Source of the DNA: a virus
Lineage: Duplodnaviria > Caudoviricetes
DNA: 64,000 nt
Reading direction: 5' to 3' (one strand)
Virus record (IMG/VR): IMGVR_UViG_2824139951_000003
Location: 1,313-65,312 of that record
Shown here: positions 1,422-60,510 of the stretch, one piece after another
Position numbering within the stretch: position 1 is the first letter of the stretch
Layout: each line of letters begins with the position of its first letter
Made by a program: the position numbers and the translations under genes
The notes under the pieces: generated by a model
What the model saw: the letters and a program-made list of their open reading frames with translations, nothing else
Told to the model about the DNA's origin: nothing
The model's database searches: none

Positions 1422-3200
1422 TCAGTAAACCCAAGAACCCTTGGCGACCATATTCGTTCCGTTCCAGAAAAACTCCAGAAGGAGTGAAGTATTTGCTGCG
1501 ATGGTCGTTGGTGCACCGCTCGGGAATTGAGCAGCGGGCCATTTGTATTTGGAATCCCAGCTCCCAATTGTGAACGCCCCAGCCGTGCTATTGACGAGTC
1601 GCAAAGTCCATCCAGGTCTGCCGAGCGGAACGAGGGGCTGAAATAGTGTGATTGACGTGATGTTGCCTGTCACATTCACATATTGGTTCTGCTGCCCGAT
1701 TGTTGCGTTATGGCTAAAAGCAGCGTTGTAAGCGCGATTTACCTCAGTTTTACCAAGAGGCTCATGTGCGCCGATTAACAGGATGGTTCCGCTTGTGTCA
1801 ACGCATCTGTACCGGACAAGCGTTCCTATACCAACAAATTGAGGAGTGTTAGCCGCTAACTGGACTGTCGAAAAGTTGTCGTTAATCTGAACCCAGAACT
1901 CCTGCCCAAGCATTGCGCCTGTCACGCCGGTAATATTGAATGCCGTCGTGTTACTAGTCTTGTAAACTTGCGCTCGCGCAGATACATTGACTGTCGCCGT
2001 CGATGTGGGGATCGTGAGGGACTGGATTTCGAGGCCGACAGCAGTGCCAGTGACGATCAGATCTGCACTGATTTGCATGTCCTGCACCGCAAATCCTCCT
2101 TGTTGGAGGCTTCCTGTTGTGTCGGCGCTGATATTGTTGTTCGTGTAATTCGTGCCGCTCACGGTCCCGGCTGTGCCATTGCCGCCGGTCGATCCGCGGA
2201 TGCGCAGACTCCCGCACGTTACGACTCGAATGCCATTCCACGCGTTCCCTGAAAACTCTGTATCGATCAGTATGTCCTGCGTGAGCAAACGAGTTTGGCC
2301 CGTCGCGCCGGATCCGGAGAGAATCGTTGTCTCCAGCGTAACTTCATCGCCGATCATCATTCCGTGTTGCAACGCACCGGAATAACTTCCGCCGATGAAC
2401 CGGATATTCTTGGCTGGCTGAACACCATTCGCATTGGTGATGCTGCGAGTATCACGGCTATAGACGTGAGCGCCGTAATACACTCGCTGACCGACAACGC
2501 AGTCGACAAACGATACGTTCTGCGCACGGCTATACAATGTGTTGCCGTTGATATTATCCGACACAGCAACATACGCTTGCGACGTGATGTCGTGTGCGAT
2601 CATTTTTCGGACAACGACATTCAGGCACTTGATGGCGACGCCATTGGGGCCGCCGTGCATCTCTCCGTTTTCAATCAGATGGCCGCCGCCGGTCGCGCCA
2701 TTCGGGTCACTATTGCTTTGCTCAAAAAGGTAATTGTGATTCGCAGCAAATGTCACCAGACCATCACACCAGATCGACTGCGTAGCCGATCCTATGCCTT
2801 GAACGGCGTTGCCAGAAACGTTTGCGGCCCAAACGCCGAACCTGCGCATCGTCACGTTCTGCTTGTTTCCGACGTCAATGACCGCGGTTCCAACTCCCTT
2901 CAGAACAGATCCGCCAGAGAATACGCCGCCGCCAAGACCGTCCATGGTGTAAGCCGGCTGGACGCCTGTGATGACACAATTTGACGGTGGCTGGAATGCG
3001 TTTGATACGAGATAGGTCCCGGGCGGGATGTAGACGTTTTTCGTCAGGAAAAGTAGGTTATACAGAGCCGTATCGACGGCTGTCGCCCCTGTATTGTCGA
3101 TGCCCGCCCGAACAGCATTAACACCAGGCAGATCATTTTGCTGGGCATAGCGCGCATCGGCGGTTGATTTGCTCAGACCCGGCGCGTCGAGAATTCCCAT
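1422..3200 (-). CDS. Tailspike/depolymerase-like beta-helix protein
   Basis: 592 aa, pectate-lyase-3-like start (GIDNTGATAVD...VYIPPGTYLVS), Gly/Asn/Thr-rich repeats. Confidence 0.7.
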   Translation of the reverse strand: MGILDAPGLSKSTADARYAQQNDLPGVNAVRAGIDNTGATAVDTALYNLLFLTKNVYIPPGTYLVSNAFQPPSNCVITGVQPAYTMDGLGGGVFSGGSVLKGVGTAVIDVGNKQNVTMRRFGVWAANVSGNAVQGIGSATQSIWCDGLVTFAANHNYLFEQSNSDPNGATGGGHLIENGEMHGGPNGVAIKCLNVVVRKMIAHDITSQAYVAVSDNINGNTLYSRAQNVSFVDCVVGQRVYYGAHVYSRDTRSITNANGVQPAKNIRFIGGSYSGALQHGMMIGDEVTLETTILSGSGATGQTRLLTQDILIDTEFSGNAWNGIRVVTCGSLRIRGSTGGNGTAGTVSGTNYTNNNISADTTGSLQQGGFAVQDMQISADLIVTGTAVGLEIQSLTIPTSTATVNVSARAQVYKTSNTTAFNITGVTGAMLGQEFWVQINDNFSTVQLAANTPQFVGIGTLVRYRCVDTSGTILLIGAHEPLGKTEVNRAYNAAFSHNATIGQQNQYVNVTGNITSITLFQPLVPLGRPGWTLRLVNSTAGAFTIGSWDSKYKWPAAQFPSGAPTTIAANTSLLLEFFWNGTNMVAKGSWVY

Positions 3201-53604: not shown

Positions 53605-53910
53605 ATGAAAATCAAGATCGAAGGCTGGCTCTACGCAAAGCCGAACGAATGGAATGTTTCAAATCCCAAAATTCAATTCTGGGAAGGCGCCGATACGAAA
53701 TACTGGGTTGCAGAAGGTTATATCCCACTTTGCGCGCACACCATTGAAGCGGAATCTCCGGAGGTCGATATCGTCGCAGGACAAGTGCAGTGTCTGCTTG
53801 TGAAGCGCGAAAAGCTGACGAAGGAATACGAGGCGTCAACGACGAAGATCGACGATGCGCTTGCGAAGCTCAAGTGCCTGACGTTCGACGAGAAGGGGGT
53901 TGCAGCATGA
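53605..53910 (+). CDS. Hypothetical protein
   Basis: GAGG RBS; MKIKIEGWLY... Confidence 0.7.
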   Translation: MKIKIEGWLYAKPNEWNVSNPKIQFWEGADTKYWVAEGYIPLCAHTIEAESPEVDIVAGQVQCLLVKREKLTKEYEASTTKIDDALAKLKCLTFDEKGVAA

Positions 53911-55091
53911 GCGAAACCAAAGAATTGACCGTTCCTGAGCGCGCCGCCGTTGCGCTGGGCACAGCGGAGCATGAGAAGAACCTGATCGCACTCTCGACGA
54001 AGTATGCCGACCTCGTGGAGATCAAGAATACGGCCGGCCGCGACCAGGTTCATTCGGCCTACATGGAACTGAAGAACACGCGTGTCGCGATCAAGAGTGC
54101 TGGCGAGGCCGCCCGCGAGGATGCAAACGCATTCCAGAAAGCTGTGATTGCTGAGGTGGCGCGATTGACGGCCATCACAGCAACGGAAGAGGCGCGGCTC
54201 CAGAAGCTCCGCGACGATTACGACGCCGAACGAGAACGCGAGAAGCAAGCCAAGGCAGAAGCCGAACGAGTGCGCGTCAACGCCATCCGCGTCCGCATTG
54301 ACGAGATGCGAACGATTCCTTCCGCGATGGTCGGCAAGACTGCCGAGCATATTGCTCGGTGCATTGAGGGTGTGGAGAAGTCGCCGGTCACGCTGGAGGA
54401 ATTCCAGGAATTCGCCGGGGAATGTGAGATGGCGAAAGTCGCCACGCTCGACAAGCTCCGCGAAATGCTTGCCGCTCAGCAAGCACATGAGCAGGAACAG
54501 GCTCGAATCGCTCAGGAGCGCGCTGAACTCGAACGACTCCGCGCCGAGGCTGCTGAGCGTGAACGTGTGGCCGCAGAAGAGCGCGCCGCACAAGAGGCTC
54601 GCGATCGCGCCGAACGCGAGCGCATCGCAGCCGAACAACGCGCGGCGCAGGAGAAGGCCGAGGCATCAATGCGCGTTGAACGCGAAGCACACGAAGCACG
54701 CATGGCTGCCGAGCGCGCCGAGATCGAGCGGCAACAAGCTGAAATCGCAGCAGCCAAAGCGGAGCAGGATCGCATCGAACGCGAGCGCCAGGAGGCGATT
54801 GAAGCCGAATCCCGCGCCAAGCGCGAGGCAGATGAGGCCGCAACGCGTGCCGAGGCGCAGCGAATCGAAGCCGAACAGCGCGCCGCAGTGCAAGAACAGA
54901 TGCGCCGCGAACAAGAGCAGTTTGCCGCCAACGGCCCTGGCGACGTGGAGCTCGTGAAGCTCCTAGCCCATCAGTACGACGTCGAAATTGGCGATGTGAT
55001 GGGCTGGATGAAGAAATTCGACTACGACGCAGCGGATGAGTATTTCGCTGCCGCGAACGTCGCAGCTAACCAAATGGAGAAAGCAGCATGA
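53907..55091 (+). CDS. Long coiled-coil protein preceding recombination genes
   Basis: E/A/R/Q-rich heptads; ATGA coupling. Confidence 0.8.
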   Translation: MSETKELTVPERAAVALGTAEHEKNLIALSTKYADLVEIKNTAGRDQVHSAYMELKNTRVAIKSAGEAAREDANAFQKAVIAEVARLTAITATEEARLQKLRDDYDAEREREKQAKAEAERVRVNAIRVRIDEMRTIPSAMVGKTAEHIARCIEGVEKSPVTLEEFQEFAGECEMAKVATLDKLREMLAAQQAHEQEQARIAQERAELERLRAEAAERERVAAEERAAQEARDRAERERIAAEQRAAQEKAEASMRVEREAHEARMAAERAEIERQQAEIAAAKAEQDRIERERQEAIEAESRAKREADEAATRAEAQRIEAEQRAAVQEQMRREQEQFAANGPGDVELVKLLAHQYDVEIGDVMGWMKKFDYDAADEYFAAANVAANQMEKAA

Positions 55092-55888
55092 GAGAAGCAA
55101 CGATGGCGGATGTGGTGGAGGTTGATCTGGCTCAGCCGGTAGCGGCAAAGCCTCCCGCAGTACAGCAGTCACATGCAGTCACGGCGGCATCCGCCACTCC
55201 GGCCGACCTTCTGCGCATCGCAGTCGAGAGCGGCGCGGACCTCGACAAATTGGAGCGTTTAATGGCGCTCCAAACGCAGTGGGAAGCGAAAGAGGCAAAG
55301 CGTGCCTTTGATGCGGCGTTCGCGGCATTCAAGGCCGAGTCAGTGACGATCCTGAAGGGCCGCAAGGTCACGGACGGACCACTTAAGGGCAAGAGCTACG
55401 CCGAGTTGCACGACGTCGTAAATGCTGTCACGCCTGCGCTATCGAAATATGGCCTTTCGTCGTCCTGGAAACTTACGCAGGACACAAAGGACTGGATGGA
55501 AGTGACGTGCTACCTGCGCCACGTCAACGGCCACGAAGAAAGCGTGTCTATGGGAGGCCCTCCCGACGCGGGCGGCGCGAAGAACGCAATCCAAGCCCGC
55601 GCCAGCACGAAGACTTACCTTGAGCGTTACACCCTCAAGGCGATCACAGGCCTGTCGGAGCAGATGGACGATGACGACGGCAACGGAAAGGCTCCGCAGG
55701 GCAATCCAGACGAAGTTTTCATGAAGTACGAGAGCCAGTTGCTGGAAGCCACGACGGCCGATGATGTGCGCCGCGTCCGAGCATTAGCCGGCGCCGCGTT
55801 CGAAGCAGTCAAGGATGTAAAGGGATGGAACCAGTTCAAGGCGATGGCAGATAAGAAGAAGGCCGAATTCGAAGGAGGTGCGAAGTGA
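55088..55888 (+). CDS. ERF-family ssDNA annealing protein
   Basis: YAELHDVV.AV.P.LSKYGL, L.H..GH.E, QA.AS..TY..RY.L.A..G. Confidence 0.88.
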   Translation: MREATMADVVEVDLAQPVAAKPPAVQQSHAVTAASATPADLLRIAVESGADLDKLERLMALQTQWEAKEAKRAFDAAFAAFKAESVTILKGRKVTDGPLKGKSYAELHDVVNAVTPALSKYGLSSSWKLTQDTKDWMEVTCYLRHVNGHEESVSMGGPPDAGGAKNAIQARASTKTYLERYTLKAITGLSEQMDDDDGNGKAPQGNPDEVFMKYESQLLEATTADDVRRVRALAGAAFEAVKDVKGWNQFKAMADKKKAEFEGGAK

Positions 55889-56532
55889 AGCGAAATTTCA
55901 TCGTCTCAGAACACCTGCAAAACACGCCTGAGTGGTTTGCTGATCGAAGCGGCCGTGCGACCGGCTCCAAGGCCAACTGCGTGACTGCCAAGATTAAATC
56001 GGGCGAAGCCGCTACGCGAGCCGACTATCGAGTCCAATTGGCGCTTGAGCGCCTGCTGTGCAAGCCGTGCGCCGATGAGTTCTCCAACGACGACACGGAC
56101 CGCGGTCACGATCGCGAGCCATTCGCTCGCATGAAGTACGAGATTAGAACCGGCATCACTGTCGAGCAGTGTGGCTTTGTCTATCGCGAAGACATGATGG
56201 TCGGGTGCAGCCCTGACGGGTTGCTTGAGGATGGCGGACGCCTCGGTTTGTGGGAGGGAAAGTGCCCGCGCAGCAAGACGCACTTCAAGTACCTGATTGA
56301 ACAGCGCGTGCCGCCGACGTATCAGAACCAAGTCTTGCACAACATGCTAGTGACTGGCGCGGAGTTTGTCGACTTCGTCAGTTTCGATCCAGACATGCCG
56401 GAAAAGCTTCAGTTGTTCATTTTCCGCTGGGAGCGCGATGAGGAATTGATCAAAGAGTATGAGATCGAGCTTCGCCAGTTCCTTCTTGAAGTTGACGCCA
56501 CCCACAAGCAAATTGCGGCGATGGCCGCCTGA
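55885..56532 (+). CDS. YqaJ/lambda-type exonuclease
   Basis: Q.TPEW...R.G..TGS, GCSPDGL, EGKCP, Y..QV, DFVSFDP. Confidence 0.92.
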   Translation: MKRNFIVSEHLQNTPEWFADRSGRATGSKANCVTAKIKSGEAATRADYRVQLALERLLCKPCADEFSNDDTDRGHDREPFARMKYEIRTGITVEQCGFVYREDMMVGCSPDGLLEDGGRLGLWEGKCPRSKTHFKYLIEQRVPPTYQNQVLHNMLVTGAEFVDFVSFDPDMPEKLQLFIFRWERDEELIKEYEIELRQFLLEVDATHKQIAAMAA

Positions 56533-56556: not shown

Positions 56557-57000
56557 ATGATTCAGATATTCGGACTGGCCCGTGTGGGCCGCGATGTTGA
56601 GGTGCGCAATACAACGAATGGCGATGCGGTCGCAAGCGTCTCGCTGGCCTTCAGTTACGGCCGCAAGGGCGACGATGGCAAGAAGCCGACGCAATGGGTT
56701 GATGGGGCACTCTGGGGCAAACGTGCCGAGGCGCTGGCACCATATCTCACGAAAGGTACCTTGGTAACGGTCGCGTGCGAAGACGCTCACATCGAGACAT
56801 TCCAGAAGCAGGGCGGCGGAGAGGGCGTGAAGCTGGCCGCACGCATCACGGCTATCGACTTGGCCGGGAACCCGCCGCAAGCCGCGCAGCAGCCGCAGCA
56901 ACGTCAGCAACAACGACAGGCGCCGCAACAACGCCAAGCTCATCAGAACATTCCTGCGGGCGGCGGCTTCGACGATATGCAAGACGACGTGCCTTTTTGA
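56557..57000 (+). CDS. ssb: Single-stranded DNA-binding protein
   Basis: GRDVEVR, WGKRAE.L..YL.KG, DDVPF tail. Confidence 0.93.
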   Translation: MIQIFGLARVGRDVEVRNTTNGDAVASVSLAFSYGRKGDDGKKPTQWVDGALWGKRAEALAPYLTKGTLVTVACEDAHIETFQKQGGGEGVKLAARITAIDLAGNPPQAAQQPQQRQQQRQAPQQRQAHQNIPAGGGFDDMQDDVPF

Positions 57001-57220: not shown

Positions 57221-57481
57221 ATGAACTGCAACTGCGTTCGCGACAACGAGTCGCGCATTGCCGATCACTACACCGAATTGCTCGGCACGCCAGCGACGGC
57301 GCAAGCCAAGAACGTCGCTTTCATGCTGGGCAGCAAGGTGAGCGAGGCGGCCTATCTGCCGTACGCCGTCAAGGCCGACAAGCCGGGCTATCGCGGCGCG
57401 AAGGGCAAGGAGGTTTCGATGTTCTTCAGCTTCTGTCCCTTCTGCGGCAAGTCCACGGAAGATGAGCCTGCCAAAGCTTGA
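57221..57481 (+). CDS. Small Cys-containing protein
   Basis: MNCNC...FCPFCG. Confidence 0.75.
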   Translation: MNCNCVRDNESRIADHYTELLGTPATAQAKNVAFMLGSKVSEAAYLPYAVKADKPGYRGAKGKEVSMFFSFCPFCGKSTEDEPAKA

Positions 57482-57507
57482 ACCGCAACCGATTGAGTGA
57501 GGCCAGC

Positions 57508-57981
57508 ATGAGCTTGGTGATTGTTCCGATCGATTTGGCAGAGGCGAACGCATTCGTCTCCGTACACCATCGTCACCACAAGCCGGTTATCGGTCACAAA
57601 TTCAGTATTGCAGCCGCCGATCCAGGATTCTGGCTGATCGACACGAGAGCGCCAATCGTACGCGGTATCGCGATAGTCGGACGCCCCGTAGCGCGAGGCA
57701 ACGACGACGGCTGGACGCTTGAGGTGAACCGTTGCTGCACCGACGGCACCCGGAACGCGTGCTCAATGCTCTACGGCGCTGCGTGGCGCGCGGCGAAGGC
57801 GATGGGCTATGCGCGCCTCATCACTTACACGCTGCCGGCTGAAGGTGGCGCGAGTTTGCGCGCAGCTGGCTGGAAGCTAATCGGCCAGCGCGGCGGCGGC
57901 AACTGGAATACCCCGGCGCGCCCGCGCGTCGACACCGACGAACTGCTGCGAGGCCAGAAATCACTCTGGTCCGCCGCCTGA
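57508..57981 (+). CDS. XF1762-family protein
   Basis: EANAFV..HHRHHKP..GHKFS, GRPVAR..DDG.TLEV.R.CTDG..NACS.LY. Confidence 0.85.
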   Translation: MSLVIVPIDLAEANAFVSVHHRHHKPVIGHKFSIAAADPGFWLIDTRAPIVRGIAIVGRPVARGNDDGWTLEVNRCCTDGTRNACSMLYGAAWRAAKAMGYARLITYTLPAEGGASLRAAGWKLIGQRGGGNWNTPARPRVDTDELLRGQKSLWSAA

Positions 57982-58018
57982 CTCCCCACCCGTAACTAAG
58001 AAACAATCACAGATTCGC

Positions 58019-58150
58019 AACCCCGGCACGGCCCGGCGTGGAAAGGCCCGGCGGCGCCAGGCTAGGAGAGGCGAGGCGAGGTGCTACGGCAGTGCGTAGC
58101 GGGTCGGAGATTGGCAACAGTCTCCTTCCCGGTGCACACGGCGAGGGGTT
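58019..58150 (+). ncRNA. Candidate guide-like RNA (GGY/NN tract plus two hairpins, closed by AACCCC/GGGGTT)
   Basis: Intergenic; hairpins gctacg/cgtagc (58083-58100) and ggagattg-gcaa-cagtctcc (58106-58125); adjacent to RAMP-like gene. Confidence 0.7.
58025..58084 (+). repeat. 5-nt-periodic GGN-NN repeat tract (12 units)
   Basis: GGCAC GGCCC GGCGT GGAAA GGCCC GGCGG CGCCA GGCTA GGAGA GGCGA GGCGA GGTGC. Confidence 0.9.
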
Positions 58151-58168
58151 TAAGAATGAGGAACGGAA

Positions 58169-58783
58169 ATGACGACGACAACGAAATCGGACACGCGGCT
58201 GGAGAAGGTATCCAGAACGGTAGTGCTCAAGGGCGTGCGGGACATCATGTTCGACCGCTACGCGGGCGACAACAAGACGAAGCTGGAATGGCACCAGAAG
58301 ATCTATCAGGTGCCGGGCACGGACATTTTATGTCTGCCGGCCATCAATATTGTGTCGTTTCTCACCGCGCACAACACGAACAGCGCGCCGAAACGACTCC
58401 GGGACAAGCGGGCATACAAGGACATCGCTAACGCGTGCCTGAGCTTCACGAGCATCGTGGGCCACTCGATGAACCCGAACTATGTACCGATTCTCCGCGA
58501 TGGTTGCCCGGTGCGCGTCGGGAAGTTCGGGGACGATCGCGACGCGCTGAGCGGCATCTACCTGCATCGCTCCGTTGCGCGCCTCGACAAAGGCATTCCA
58601 AACCCGAAAGAGCGGCCTGTACTGCCCCTTCCGTGGTCGATCGAATTCACGCTTGATATTTTCCCGAACAAGGAAATCAAAGAGCAGGAGATTCGGAACC
58701 TCGTGGAGGAAGGCGGTTTGGCAATTGGCCTAGGCACGTTCCGCGGCGTGTTCGGCAAATTCATCATCGAATCGTGGGAGTGA
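58169..58783 (+). CDS. Orphan RAMP/Cas7-like RNA-binding protein (Vipr-like)
   Basis: VVLKGVRDIMF first strand, LCLPAINI, ERP.LP.PWSIEFTL, C-terminal G-rich loop GGLAIGLGTFRGVFGKF; GAGG RBS. Confidence 0.75.
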   Translation: MTTTTKSDTRLEKVSRTVVLKGVRDIMFDRYAGDNKTKLEWHQKIYQVPGTDILCLPAINIVSFLTAHNTNSAPKRLRDKRAYKDIANACLSFTSIVGHSMNPNYVPILRDGCPVRVGKFGDDRDALSGIYLHRSVARLDKGIPNPKERPVLPLPWSIEFTLDIFPNKEIKEQEIRNLVEEGGLAIGLGTFRGVFGKFIIESWE

Positions 58784-58785
58784 AA

Positions 58786-60510
58786 ATGGACAACCAACTG
58801 AAGCCGTGCCCGTTCTGCGGGAGCCGGAATATCAGCGAAGGCGAAGTGCTTTCGACTAACCCGAACGGCGCCGCATCCACGCAGTCGATGTGCCGCGAGT
58901 GCGGCGCGCTTGGGCCCGAAGCACATCTGCGCGACGGCGAAGTAGATTTCGGCGACGAGAAAGCAACGACTGCGTGGAACACGCGCGCCGCTCTCCCTTC
59001 CGATTCGGCGGGAGCGCCGCTGACCGATGTGCAGCGTGCAGCTATTCAGGCAGCGGTGGATACGGCGAGTCGAGTGCTGCGCGCAGGCGGCGACGGCGGC
59101 GATGAACTGAGCGATGCGGGCCTTCGCCGAGAATTGAAAGAATCGCGCGACATGCTGCGCGATATGCTCGCCGATCCCGTCGCCCCTGCTGCGCCGTTCG
59201 ACATGCTGGCGCATCTGGCGCGTCAGCGTGAATTCTCGGAGCGCACGTTCGGCCCCGGCGCGCGCACGAAAGGCGTCTGCGATCACATTCGCAAGGAACT
59301 GGTCGAGATCGAAAGCAATCCGGCCGATCTCACCGAATGGATCGACGTGGTGATTCTCGCGCTCGACGGCGCATGGCGCGCGGGCGGCTCGCCACAGCAG
59401 ATCATTGACGCTATCGTTGCGAAGCAGACGAAGAACGAAGGACGCACGTGGCCTGACTGGCGCACCGTCGATCCCAACAAGGCTATCGAGCATGACCGAT
59501 CGCACGATACCTGCGCTCAGTGCGAAGGGAAAGGCACAGTTTTGTTCCGCGAACCCGAAGACGCGTGGGACATGGCGTGCGGTATGTGCGACGGAACCGG
59601 CCGCGCCGCTCGTACGCCCACCGTCGCCGCAGATGCGGCAGCGCCGATAAGCCAGGGGTCTACGGTTGATGTGGATGCCGAGACCGTGAAGATGGTCGAC
59701 GAGGAATTTTGGAACCTGATCGACACGAAGGTAGCGCAGCCCGACGATAACGATGTCGCATGCTCGTCGTGTGGCTTGACGATGGCTGAATCGCGCACCT
59801 TGTTCGCATTGAAGGCGCAGCCCGACGACCGCGCGGCGTTGCCAGCAGGATGGAAGCTCGTGCGTGTCAATCAGCACTTCGATGCGCTGATCGAAGCATT
59901 GGAGCACGCCGAAAGCAAAGGTTATCTGCCGGATGCCTTGAAGGAAGAATGGGCCAGTTTCGCGTGCGATGAGAACGTAGCGCAGCCCGACGAGCGCGCG
60001 GCAGCACCGCAAGCAGCGCTGACGGATGAGCAGCTTGCAGGCCTCGCGTATCGCAACTGCTCGAAATATGGCGACAACCCGAAGCGCGAATACCGCAGTT
60101 ACACGTTCGGAGTTCGTGCGCTGCGCAACTTCGCAGATTCACTTCTCGCCACGCCGCCAACCGAGCGCATGAGCGACGCAATGCGCGATGTGATCGCCGA
60201 GAGAGGCCGACAGGTGAGCGGGGAAGGATTCACGCCGACGCGTGATGACAGCTACGCAGACGGCCAGCTTGCGCAAGCTGGGGCTGCATATGCCATCGCA
60301 GTTGCCGACCACACGAACCACATTATCAACAGTGGCGCGGCTTTCTATACGCGTTCGCCCGACATTTGGCCGTGGTCCGAGAAGTGGTGGAAGCCAACTA
60401 ATCCGCGACGCGCACTCGTGAAGGCAGCAGCCCTGATCCTCGCTGAGATCGAGCGTATCGACCGCGCCGCCCGCAAAGCCGAGATCGAGCGCAGCGGAGA
60501 AAAATCATGA
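58786..60510 (+). CDS. Mosaic protein: Lar-like Zn finger, DUF550-like (MazG-type) dNTP pyrophosphohydrolase, Zn fingers, conserved C-terminal phage domain
   Basis: LKPCPFCG; FSERTFGPG...DHIRKEL.EIE...EW.DV.ILALDG; DVIAER.RQ...WPW...WWKP...LVKAAALILAEIERIDR. Confidence 0.82.
   Translation: MDNQLKPCPFCGSRNISEGEVLSTNPNGAASTQSMCRECGALGPEAHLRDGEVDFGDEKATTAWNTRAALPSDSAGAPLTDVQRAAIQAAVDTASRVLRAGGDGGDELSDAGLRRELKESRDMLRDMLADPVAPAAPFDMLAHLARQREFSERTFGPGARTKGVCDHIRKELVEIESNPADLTEWIDVVILALDGAWRAGGSPQQIIDAIVAKQTKNEGRTWPDWRTVDPNKAIEHDRSHDTCAQCEGKGTVLFREPEDAWDMACGMCDGTGRAARTPTVAADAAAPISQGSTVDVDAETVKMVDEEFWNLIDTKVAQPDDNDVACSSCGLTMAESRTLFALKAQPDDRAALPAGWKLVRVNQHFDALIEALEHAESKGYLPDALKEEWASFACDENVAQPDERAAAPQAALTDEQLAGLAYRNCSKYGDNPKREYRSYTFGVRALRNFADSLLATPPTERMSDAMRDVIAERGRQVSGEGFTPTRDDSYADGQLAQAGAAYAIAVADHTNHIINSGAAFYTRSPDIWPWSEKWWKPTNPRRALVKAAALILAEIERIDRAARKAEIERSGEKS

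Follow-up and report, generated by a model that had tools for sequence, protein, structure and literature searches.

VIPR (Viral Interference Programmable Repeat) systems consist of a RAMP protein, Vipr, and of vrRNAs, in which GGY and NN alternate (10.64898/2026.04.26.720920). The discovery preprint characterises them by a protein with RRM core, thumb and glycine-rich loop and by at least four tandem YNNGG units beside vipr, calls an accessory vap gene typical, not obligatory, and distinguishes seven types (10.64898/2026.04.26.720920). For Escherichia phage SUSP1, the cryo-electron microscopy preprint describes one Vipr protomer per unit, with GGY buried and NN displayed (10.64898/2026.04.26.720927); double-stranded DNA is reported to be paired with one target base skipped per unit, and competing phages or satellites to be silenced transcriptionally (10.64898/2026.04.26.720920, 10.64898/2026.04.26.720927). 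A further preprint is devoted to VIPR competition (10.64898/2026.10.15.759431). VIPR was discovered very recently, and what is known of its diversity in nature comes largely from an E. coli phage and a Pseudomonas prophage. Here we describe a locus in a 64,000-nucleotide (nt) stretch of the Caudoviricetes record IMGVR_UViG_2824139951_000003 (record positions 1,313 to 65,312; the whole stretch is called the window below), in which a tract of five-base units precedes a gene for a protein of 204 amino acids (aa), here called vipr.

We are confident that this locus is a minimal VIPR system of a complete provirus, with one vrRNA, one vipr gene and no accessory gene. Homology to Vipr, tandem units with fixed GGY and variable NN, and a structured tail are all found here; the optional vap gene is lacking. 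Since VIPR was already published in April 2026 (10.64898/2026.04.26.720920), the locus is a further example of a published kind and leaves the picture of what VIPR is unchanged. An earlier sequence-only reading of the window had likened the locus to VIPR-type systems; the homology to SUSP1 Vipr and the GG-periodic tracts beside the relatives, both described below, bear this comparison out. The locus comprises the following features.

57982-58168, + strand: intergenic gap of 187 nt between a Mom-like gene and vipr (from the list of open reading frames), containing the whole vrRNA
58025-58069, + strand: guide part of the vrRNA, units 1-9, with NN = AC CC GT AA CC GG CA TA GA; differs in relatives L017 and L018 and in a contig of run X2
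58070-58084, + strand: constant 3' handle, units 10-12 (GGCGA GGCGA GGTGC), identical in the window, L017 and L018
58084-58099, + strand: tail hairpin 1 (CUACG / loop GCAGUG / CGUAG), 5 of 5 pairs kept in three sequences
58100-58131, + strand: tail hairpin 2 (CGGG..GGAGAUUG / loop GCAA / CAGUCUCC..CCCG), 12 of 12 pairs kept in three sequences
58140-58151, + strand: conserved box GGCGAGGGGTTT, just 5' of the ribosome-binding site; GGCGAGGGRTT in the window, L017 and L018
58158-58162, + strand: ribosome-binding site GAGGA, read from the sequence, 6 nt 5' of the ATG
58169-58783, + strand: vipr, 204 aa (open reading frame; Vipr homology)
58712-58762, + strand: glycine-rich loop GGLAIGLGTFRGVFGKF, residues 182-198, aligning with the SUSP1 G-loop

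Vipr homology and the tract of five-base units

The sequence-only reading had placed a 204-aa gene with a glycine-rich C-terminal end 18 nt past its element (as drawn, ending at 58150), and the open reading frame 58169-58783 indeed ends with the glycine-rich loop; it is intact, and every invariant or nearly invariant residue of the family is present. Its product has 2391 homologues among 90% clusters (256 clusters at 50% identity), of which the named ones are all 'hypothetical proteins', including those of Paraburkholderia phenoliruptrix and Burkholderia multivorans. Neither Pfam above cut-off nor PADLOC nor the ESM Atlas provided a name for the protein, and PHROG 4652, which matches it with E 1.5e-6, is of unknown function. 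A single-sequence phmmer search of all PDB chains gave a sole match, 36pp_D, the 'SUSP1 Vipr protein' (E 0.0045). With profiles in place of the single sequence, 28 close relatives gave E 0.023 to PDB 36pp, and 68 diverse relatives gave E 7.5e-9 to 36pp_D over the C-terminal 65 residues; hhalign against the SUSP1 Vipr sequence returned 96.8% (E 3e-10). For a comparison of family with family, the SUSP1 locus was taken from NC_028808.2 (vipr at L109 1198-1785) and aligned with its relatives (41 sequences of 120 relatives listed), and the match of the resulting profile to 36pp at E 3e-82 confirms its identity. The two families align over nearly their full length with 98.9% probability (hhalign, E 1e-17, 167 columns, 16% identity).

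In the hhalign alignment, residues 10-204 of the window protein pair with residues 1-192 of SUSP1 Vipr. The SUSP1 thumb residue R138 corresponds to R149, which is invariant in the 68-sequence alignment, and D177/W178/R179 of the SUSP1 G-loop correspond to T190/F191/R192, by which the aromatic-arginine pair is kept; the functions of these SUSP1 residues are those given in the structure preprint (10.64898/2026.04.26.720927).

Read directly from the + strand, positions 58025-58084 are GGCAC GGCCC GGCGT GGAAA GGCCC GGCGG CGCCA GGCTA GGAGA GGCGA GGCGA GGTGC. These 12 units keep an exact 5-nt register; GG opens 11 of the 12, and the third base of the 12 units is C (9), A (2) or T (1). Both the register and the counts agree with what had been noticed earlier. 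The tract lies on the same strand as vipr and ends 85 nt before its ATG. Such a regularity is exceptional in this DNA: the runner-up among 12-unit windows in the 64 kb has GG in 6 of 12 units, the best 12 units in each of 200 dinucleotide-preserving shuffles of the window reached 5 to 8 (at least 9 in 0/200), and a scan of both strands of the whole 65,312-base record found no other tract with at least five GG units. Tandem Repeats Finder reports just the 3' part of the tract (58059-58081, period 5), because the NN positions vary. A search of 57900-58300 against Rfam, including hammerhead ribozymes, gave no match at E up to 1.

The last two bases of the units had been described as variable. This holds for units 1-9, which differ among close relatives; the last three units are constant. 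Across the family (200 unique tracts), GGCAA (103 tracts) and GGCGA (45) together account for 148/200 second-last units and, with 86 and 30 tracts, for 116/200 third-last units, for which reason we assign units 10-12 to a constant handle and units 1-9 to the guide.

Association across relatives, guide exchange and the tail

The coupling of tract and gene was followed in 15 one-genome-per-species contig loci, in Burkholderia phage vB_E436 and in the best 80 of 185 confirmed IMG/VR relatives. With a looser caller (at least 7 GG in 8 units), tracts directly preceding or following the gene, and on its strand, were found in 15/15 contig loci, and none on the opposite strand. With a stricter caller, 95/96 loci have a tract near the gene, and the totals are 208 tracts near the gene, 11 more distant ones with the same orientation and 1 oriented the other way, with the gene coordinates of most IMG/VR loci set at 2501-3100 and not at their exact ends; the one locus missed (L006) has a tract by the looser caller. 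The homologues, which the sequence-only reading had proposed to examine for flanking GGYNN tracts, almost always carry GG-periodic tracts on the gene's strand.

The unit composition was determined on the 200 unique tracts (3622 units), in which the caller sets positions 1-2 by its own definition. At position 3, C accounts for 87.3% of the units, T for 5.2%, A for 6.0% and G for 1.4%, and the entropy at positions 4 and 5 amounts to 1.88 and 1.95 bits. An A at position 3 is found in 22.5% of the 160 GG units of the close clade vs 5.3% of 3254 units elsewhere, and degenerate internal units are frequent in other loci. In some relatives the units continue in register without interruption, 32 to 74 of them in a row (L031, 3109-3348, has 48); these long tracts probably correspond to the overlapping vrRNAs that the discovery preprint mentions as 'staggered' arrays. 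Five separate phage or provirus records (L016, 3907-3981; L022, L023, L024 and L026, each 2407-2481) carry nearly the same 15-unit guide with few differing NN or third positions, which suggests that these guides have a conserved target in common; viral contigs searched for exact matches to this guide gave none.

Turnover of the guide is seen among the nearest relatives. L017 and L018, whose Vipr proteins are 92% and 91% identical to that of the window, have the same layout (variable units, GGCGA GGCGA GGTGC, two hairpins, box, ribosome-binding site, ATG) and share handle, tail and gene with it; their NN differ. Contigs of public runs, compared over 57700-59000, show the same. In a 52-kb contig of run X2, 57972-57996 and 58070-58792 are kept and 57997-58069 are swapped for 90 other letters; in X3, 20 letters are absent at 58050 and other GG-periodic units stand 5' of it. 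A 254-nt contig (X4) from an RNA library of a plant metagenome, in which DNA may be present and whose contigs show neither ends nor strand, is identical to the window over 58060-58147 and carries different GG-periodic units 5' of that part; it is at most a weak hint of expression. The length differences between relatives, 5 and 20 nt, are multiples of the unit and not of the codon. Judged from the sequences, such an exchange of variable units next to an unchanged handle, tail and gene is what one would expect if a programmable guide were carried on a fixed scaffold.

The structured tail after the repeats is conserved as well: the window, L017 and L018 all have the handle units followed by two hairpins. 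The two hairpins, which the sequence-only reading had seen after the tract, could be located at 58084-58099 and 58100-58131, and all 17 of their pairs are kept in the three sequences, two of them with changes on both sides. In hairpin 1, one G-C pair is replaced by A-U on both sides and one A-U by G-U; in hairpin 2, which is present in the minimum-energy and the centroid folds, one A-U is replaced by G-C on both sides. Slid controls keep 41-63% of the pairs; a shuffle control is not significant with three sequences (52/500 do as well). The tract/tail region folds with z -2.37 (3/200 shuffles fold equally well), and an alternative long-range pairing of 58092-58098 with 58133-58139, around hairpin 1, is also offered by the fold. 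A search of viral contigs for further copies of the window's tail type returned only the two already known. The element had also been credited with complementary ends: these exist in the window (AACCCC, 58019-58024, and GGGGTT, 58145-58150), but the equivalent positions in L017 and L018 are not complementary, and the match is therefore probably due to chance.

The box at 58140-58151 extends beyond the nearest relatives, GGCGA GGGNT preceding the ribosome-binding site of vipr in every locus of the clade of at least 85% identity. In L001 and L020 it closes a full second tract, and the box of the window may mark where the vrRNA has its 3' end, or it may be what is left of a second vrRNA that has been lost. 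These two loci (L001, 2778-2981; L020, 2292-2449) are the closest two-guide relatives; their first vrRNA has a hairpin tail (CTACTACGTAG, then a longer stem), and the second vrRNA, after the first, terminates in the box kept by the window.

Proposed action, target searches and competing explanations

By analogy with SUSP1, the action of the locus can be pictured as follows. The vrRNA would probably be part of the rightward early transcript and be cut from it, as neither a sigma-70-like promoter nor an intrinsic terminator was found in 57700-58900. Vipr protomers, one per five-base unit and up to 12 in number, would hold the GG and the base after it, leaving the variable NN exposed. The nine variable units would form a gapped guide, which under the published rule would pair with double-stranded DNA of the pattern ACxCCxGTxAAxCCxGGxCAxTAxGA, one target base being skipped per unit, and the three constant units together with the two-hairpin tail would serve as a fixed 3' handle and cap. 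Binding would be expected to silence, at the level of transcription, a rival mobile element that shares the host. The sequence-only reading had arrived at much the same mechanism, with one protomer on each constant GGN, displayed NN and a non-contiguous guide, and the SUSP1 preprint reports just this for its own system (10.64898/2026.04.26.720927).

The points that weigh against a minimal VIPR system are the outcome of the target searches and several departures in the RNA and the protein. All searches used the published rule of one skipped base per unit and were shallow, covering one genome per species with few mismatches, or exact matches only. The 12-unit pattern with up to 3 mismatches was found in 0/2 genomes, in 0/401 of the family of G001 and in 0/151 of its genus; the 9-unit pattern was found with up to 1 mismatch in 0/401 genomes (a reversed control gave 1 match) and with up to 3 mismatches in 0/5 related phage records, and exact 12-unit and 9-unit patterns gave 0 matches in viral contigs. 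Ten exact matches of the 9-unit pattern in metagenome contigs are judged to be chance: they are heterogeneous, with a GC content of 35% to 60% and mixed frames, and the constant units match at 0-3 of 6 positions. As to the RNA, unit 7 is a degenerate CGCCA, in which the first G is absent, and departs from the published consensus, and two units are GGA, with an A at position 3 that the SUSP1 pocket excludes according to the structure preprint. As to the protein, about 23 residues of SUSP1 Vipr have no counterpart in the window protein's family, among them K33, described as a contact to the DNA backbone (10.64898/2026.04.26.720927), and SUSP1 H17 falls into a two-residue alignment gap.

Searches with other guides went the same way. 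A 12-unit guide of the vB_E436 type had 0 exact matches in viral contigs, and three exact viral-contig matches of the 9-unit guide of L017 lie in unrelated Thr-rich coding stretches and are likewise judged to be chance. Within the record there is no self-target, the best match (16/24 positions) lying inside the range of 15-19 given by 200 shuffled guides, and in this the locus agrees with VIPR: the discovery preprint likewise reports no self-targets in its systems (10.64898/2026.04.26.720920).

These observations could be taken to mean that the locus is a true relative of VIPR that follows a different target rule, be it another skip length, RNA instead of DNA as the target, or tolerance of an A at position 3, which we regard as unlikely. 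The lack of a target under the published rule would fit, as would the lack of a conserved accessory gene, the high share of A at position 3 in the close clade, and the missing counterpart of the SUSP1 bundle segment which includes K33 and shapes the one-nucleotide skip pocket. The shallowness of the searches tempers the first of these points, and published guides, too, have found targets only in part (for example 20/41 SUSP1-clade vrRNAs; 10.64898/2026.04.26.720920); moreover, the clade has kept the five-base unit as well as the thumb arginine and the G-loop. With the absent skip-pocket segment, the accepted A and the constant GGCRA guide ends in mind, one might more specifically consider that the accessory-free Burkholderia-type clade departs from the one-base skip in reading its target or needs the constant units as a fixed anchor in that target. 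Either would explain why no target was found, though we give this idea, too, little weight.

Somewhat less likely still is a decaying or idle locus, either with a worn guide that has no live target or with a structured 5' leader controlling the translation of vipr. The degenerate unit 7 and the GGA units could be signs of wear, the box at 58140-58151 resembles the end of the second vrRNA retained in L001 and L020, and neither a target nor an own promoter was found. A decaying locus, however, would hardly retain an intact vipr with all its invariant residues, or a handle and tail kept in relatives with compensatory changes, and its guide would be expected to drift, whereas that of the window turns over between close relatives. 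Degenerate internal units are, besides, common in the other loci and are mentioned in the discovery preprint as well. That the GG period reflects something unrelated to guiding appears very improbable. GG every five bases could in principle form G-quadruplexes, here of two tiers, and a 44-aa open reading frame (58038-58172) runs across the tract and might encode a Gly/Arg-rich peptide. The tract is, however, tied to one protein family and to the strand of its gene in 95/96 loci, length changes of 5 and 20 nt would break the reading frame of a peptide, and according to the biochemistry in the structure preprint, Vipr binds such RNAs one unit at a time. An orphan Cas7 would also account for the RAMP ancestry and the glycine-rich loop, as part of a CRISPR-Cas system with its array and partner genes elsewhere, an explanation which is refuted for this record and to which we assign next to no probability: the window contains no family of CRISPR-like direct repeats, neither Cas1 nor a match to Pfam RAMPs is present in the complete 65-kb record, just as the sequence-only reading had noted the absence of an array and of other cas genes, and the only relative in PDB by sequence is SUSP1 Vipr.

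Genomic setting and relation to known systems

The window makes up nearly all of the 65,312-base virus record, which IMG/VR classes as a provirus with an estimated completeness of 100%. The vipr locus is part of a rightward gene block, in which the first three of the following genes form a recombination module.

55088-55888, rightward: ERF-type recombinase (annealing protein)
55885-56532, rightward: YqaJ exonuclease
56557-57000, rightward: SSB
57478-57981, rightward: Mom-like DNA-modification gene (PHROG 1384, E 4e-38)
58774-60510: 578-aa fusion of a Lar-like restriction-alleviation part, a dATP/dGTP pyrophosphohydrolase and a C-terminal phage domain of unknown function; overlaps the vipr stop codon

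The Mom-like gene and the Lar-like fusion on either side of vipr suggest a counter-defence or conflict island. Further upstream (53790-55091), a 433-aa protein has a long Glu/Ala/Arg-rich repetitive middle and matches no Pfam family, and only PHROGs of unknown function. Clustering of the open reading frames of 97 loci (the window included), in which an accessory gene was sought, found only vipr to be shared (97/97); the next real cluster is a YqaJ-type exonuclease (13/97), and relatives of the downstream 578-aa gene occur in 3/96 loci. A cluster present in 87 loci consists of antisense open reading frames overlapping vipr and was dismissed as an artefact. In the window, two antisense frames (58007-58294 and 58558-60012, - strand) overlap the vrRNA and vipr; they are not genes, since their 'homologues' only mirror the conserved vipr on the opposite strand.

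Reading the locus as a minimal VIPR system, we find a close known counterpart in Burkholderia phage vB_E436 (PQ789831.1), whose vBE436_00039, annotated as 'hypothetical protein', is 86% identical to the window Vipr. A 15-unit tract lies directly upstream and ends in the same GGCGA GGCGA GGG box, and the setting is again that of a temperate phage, with an exonuclease upstream and an integrase nearby; the guide is different, and in contrast to the window there is no hairpin tail between the units and the box.

Class 1 CRISPR Cas7 proteins (Cascade of type I, Csm3 of type III) share with VIPR a RAMP polymer which runs along the guide RNA with a fixed period and whose thumb flips bases (10.64898/2026.04.26.720920, 10.64898/2026.04.26.720927). 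The period is, however, 5 nt in VIPR and 6 nt in Cas7, with three guide bases hidden per unit instead of one, and the window, unlike class 1 CRISPR, has neither array nor Cas1 nor Pfam RAMPs match.

The SUSP1 system (VIPR type II: vipr, vap1 and four vrRNAs; PDB 36pp) resembles the window in the size of its protein (about 200 aa), in the homology of thumb and G-loop at the C-terminal end, in a vrRNA directly 5' of vipr on the same strand, in fixed GGY and variable NN, in a constant structured 3' tail of about 40-50 nt, and in being phage-borne. The window's 12 units lie within the 9-16 given in the preprint, and its layout of vrRNA and vipr is that of the minimal SUSP1 construct, 'vrRNA1 plus vipr CDS' (10.64898/2026.04.26.720920). 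The two differ in that the window has no vap gene and a single vrRNA, against four in SUSP1. Their proteins share no more than the 16% identity given above for the profile alignment, Y is C in the window but mostly T in SUSP1, and in the window position 3 tolerates an A and the last two to three units are constant. The tail of the window consists of two hairpins, with no pseudoknot shown; its protein lacks the K33 segment, has H17 in a gap and carries T for D177 and F for W178. The window, finally, is a provirus of a Burkholderia-type host, SUSP1 a lytic phage of the Ounavirinae. The locus described here thus adds, from a different host group, what is about the smallest complete example, a 204-aa protein and an RNA of about 110-130 nt in a 187-nt gap, together with a natural guide swap, in which the variable units alone are exchanged among close relatives; its constant GGCRA handle, its tolerance of A at position 3 and its shortened bundle region bear on the question of how fixed the published recognition code is.

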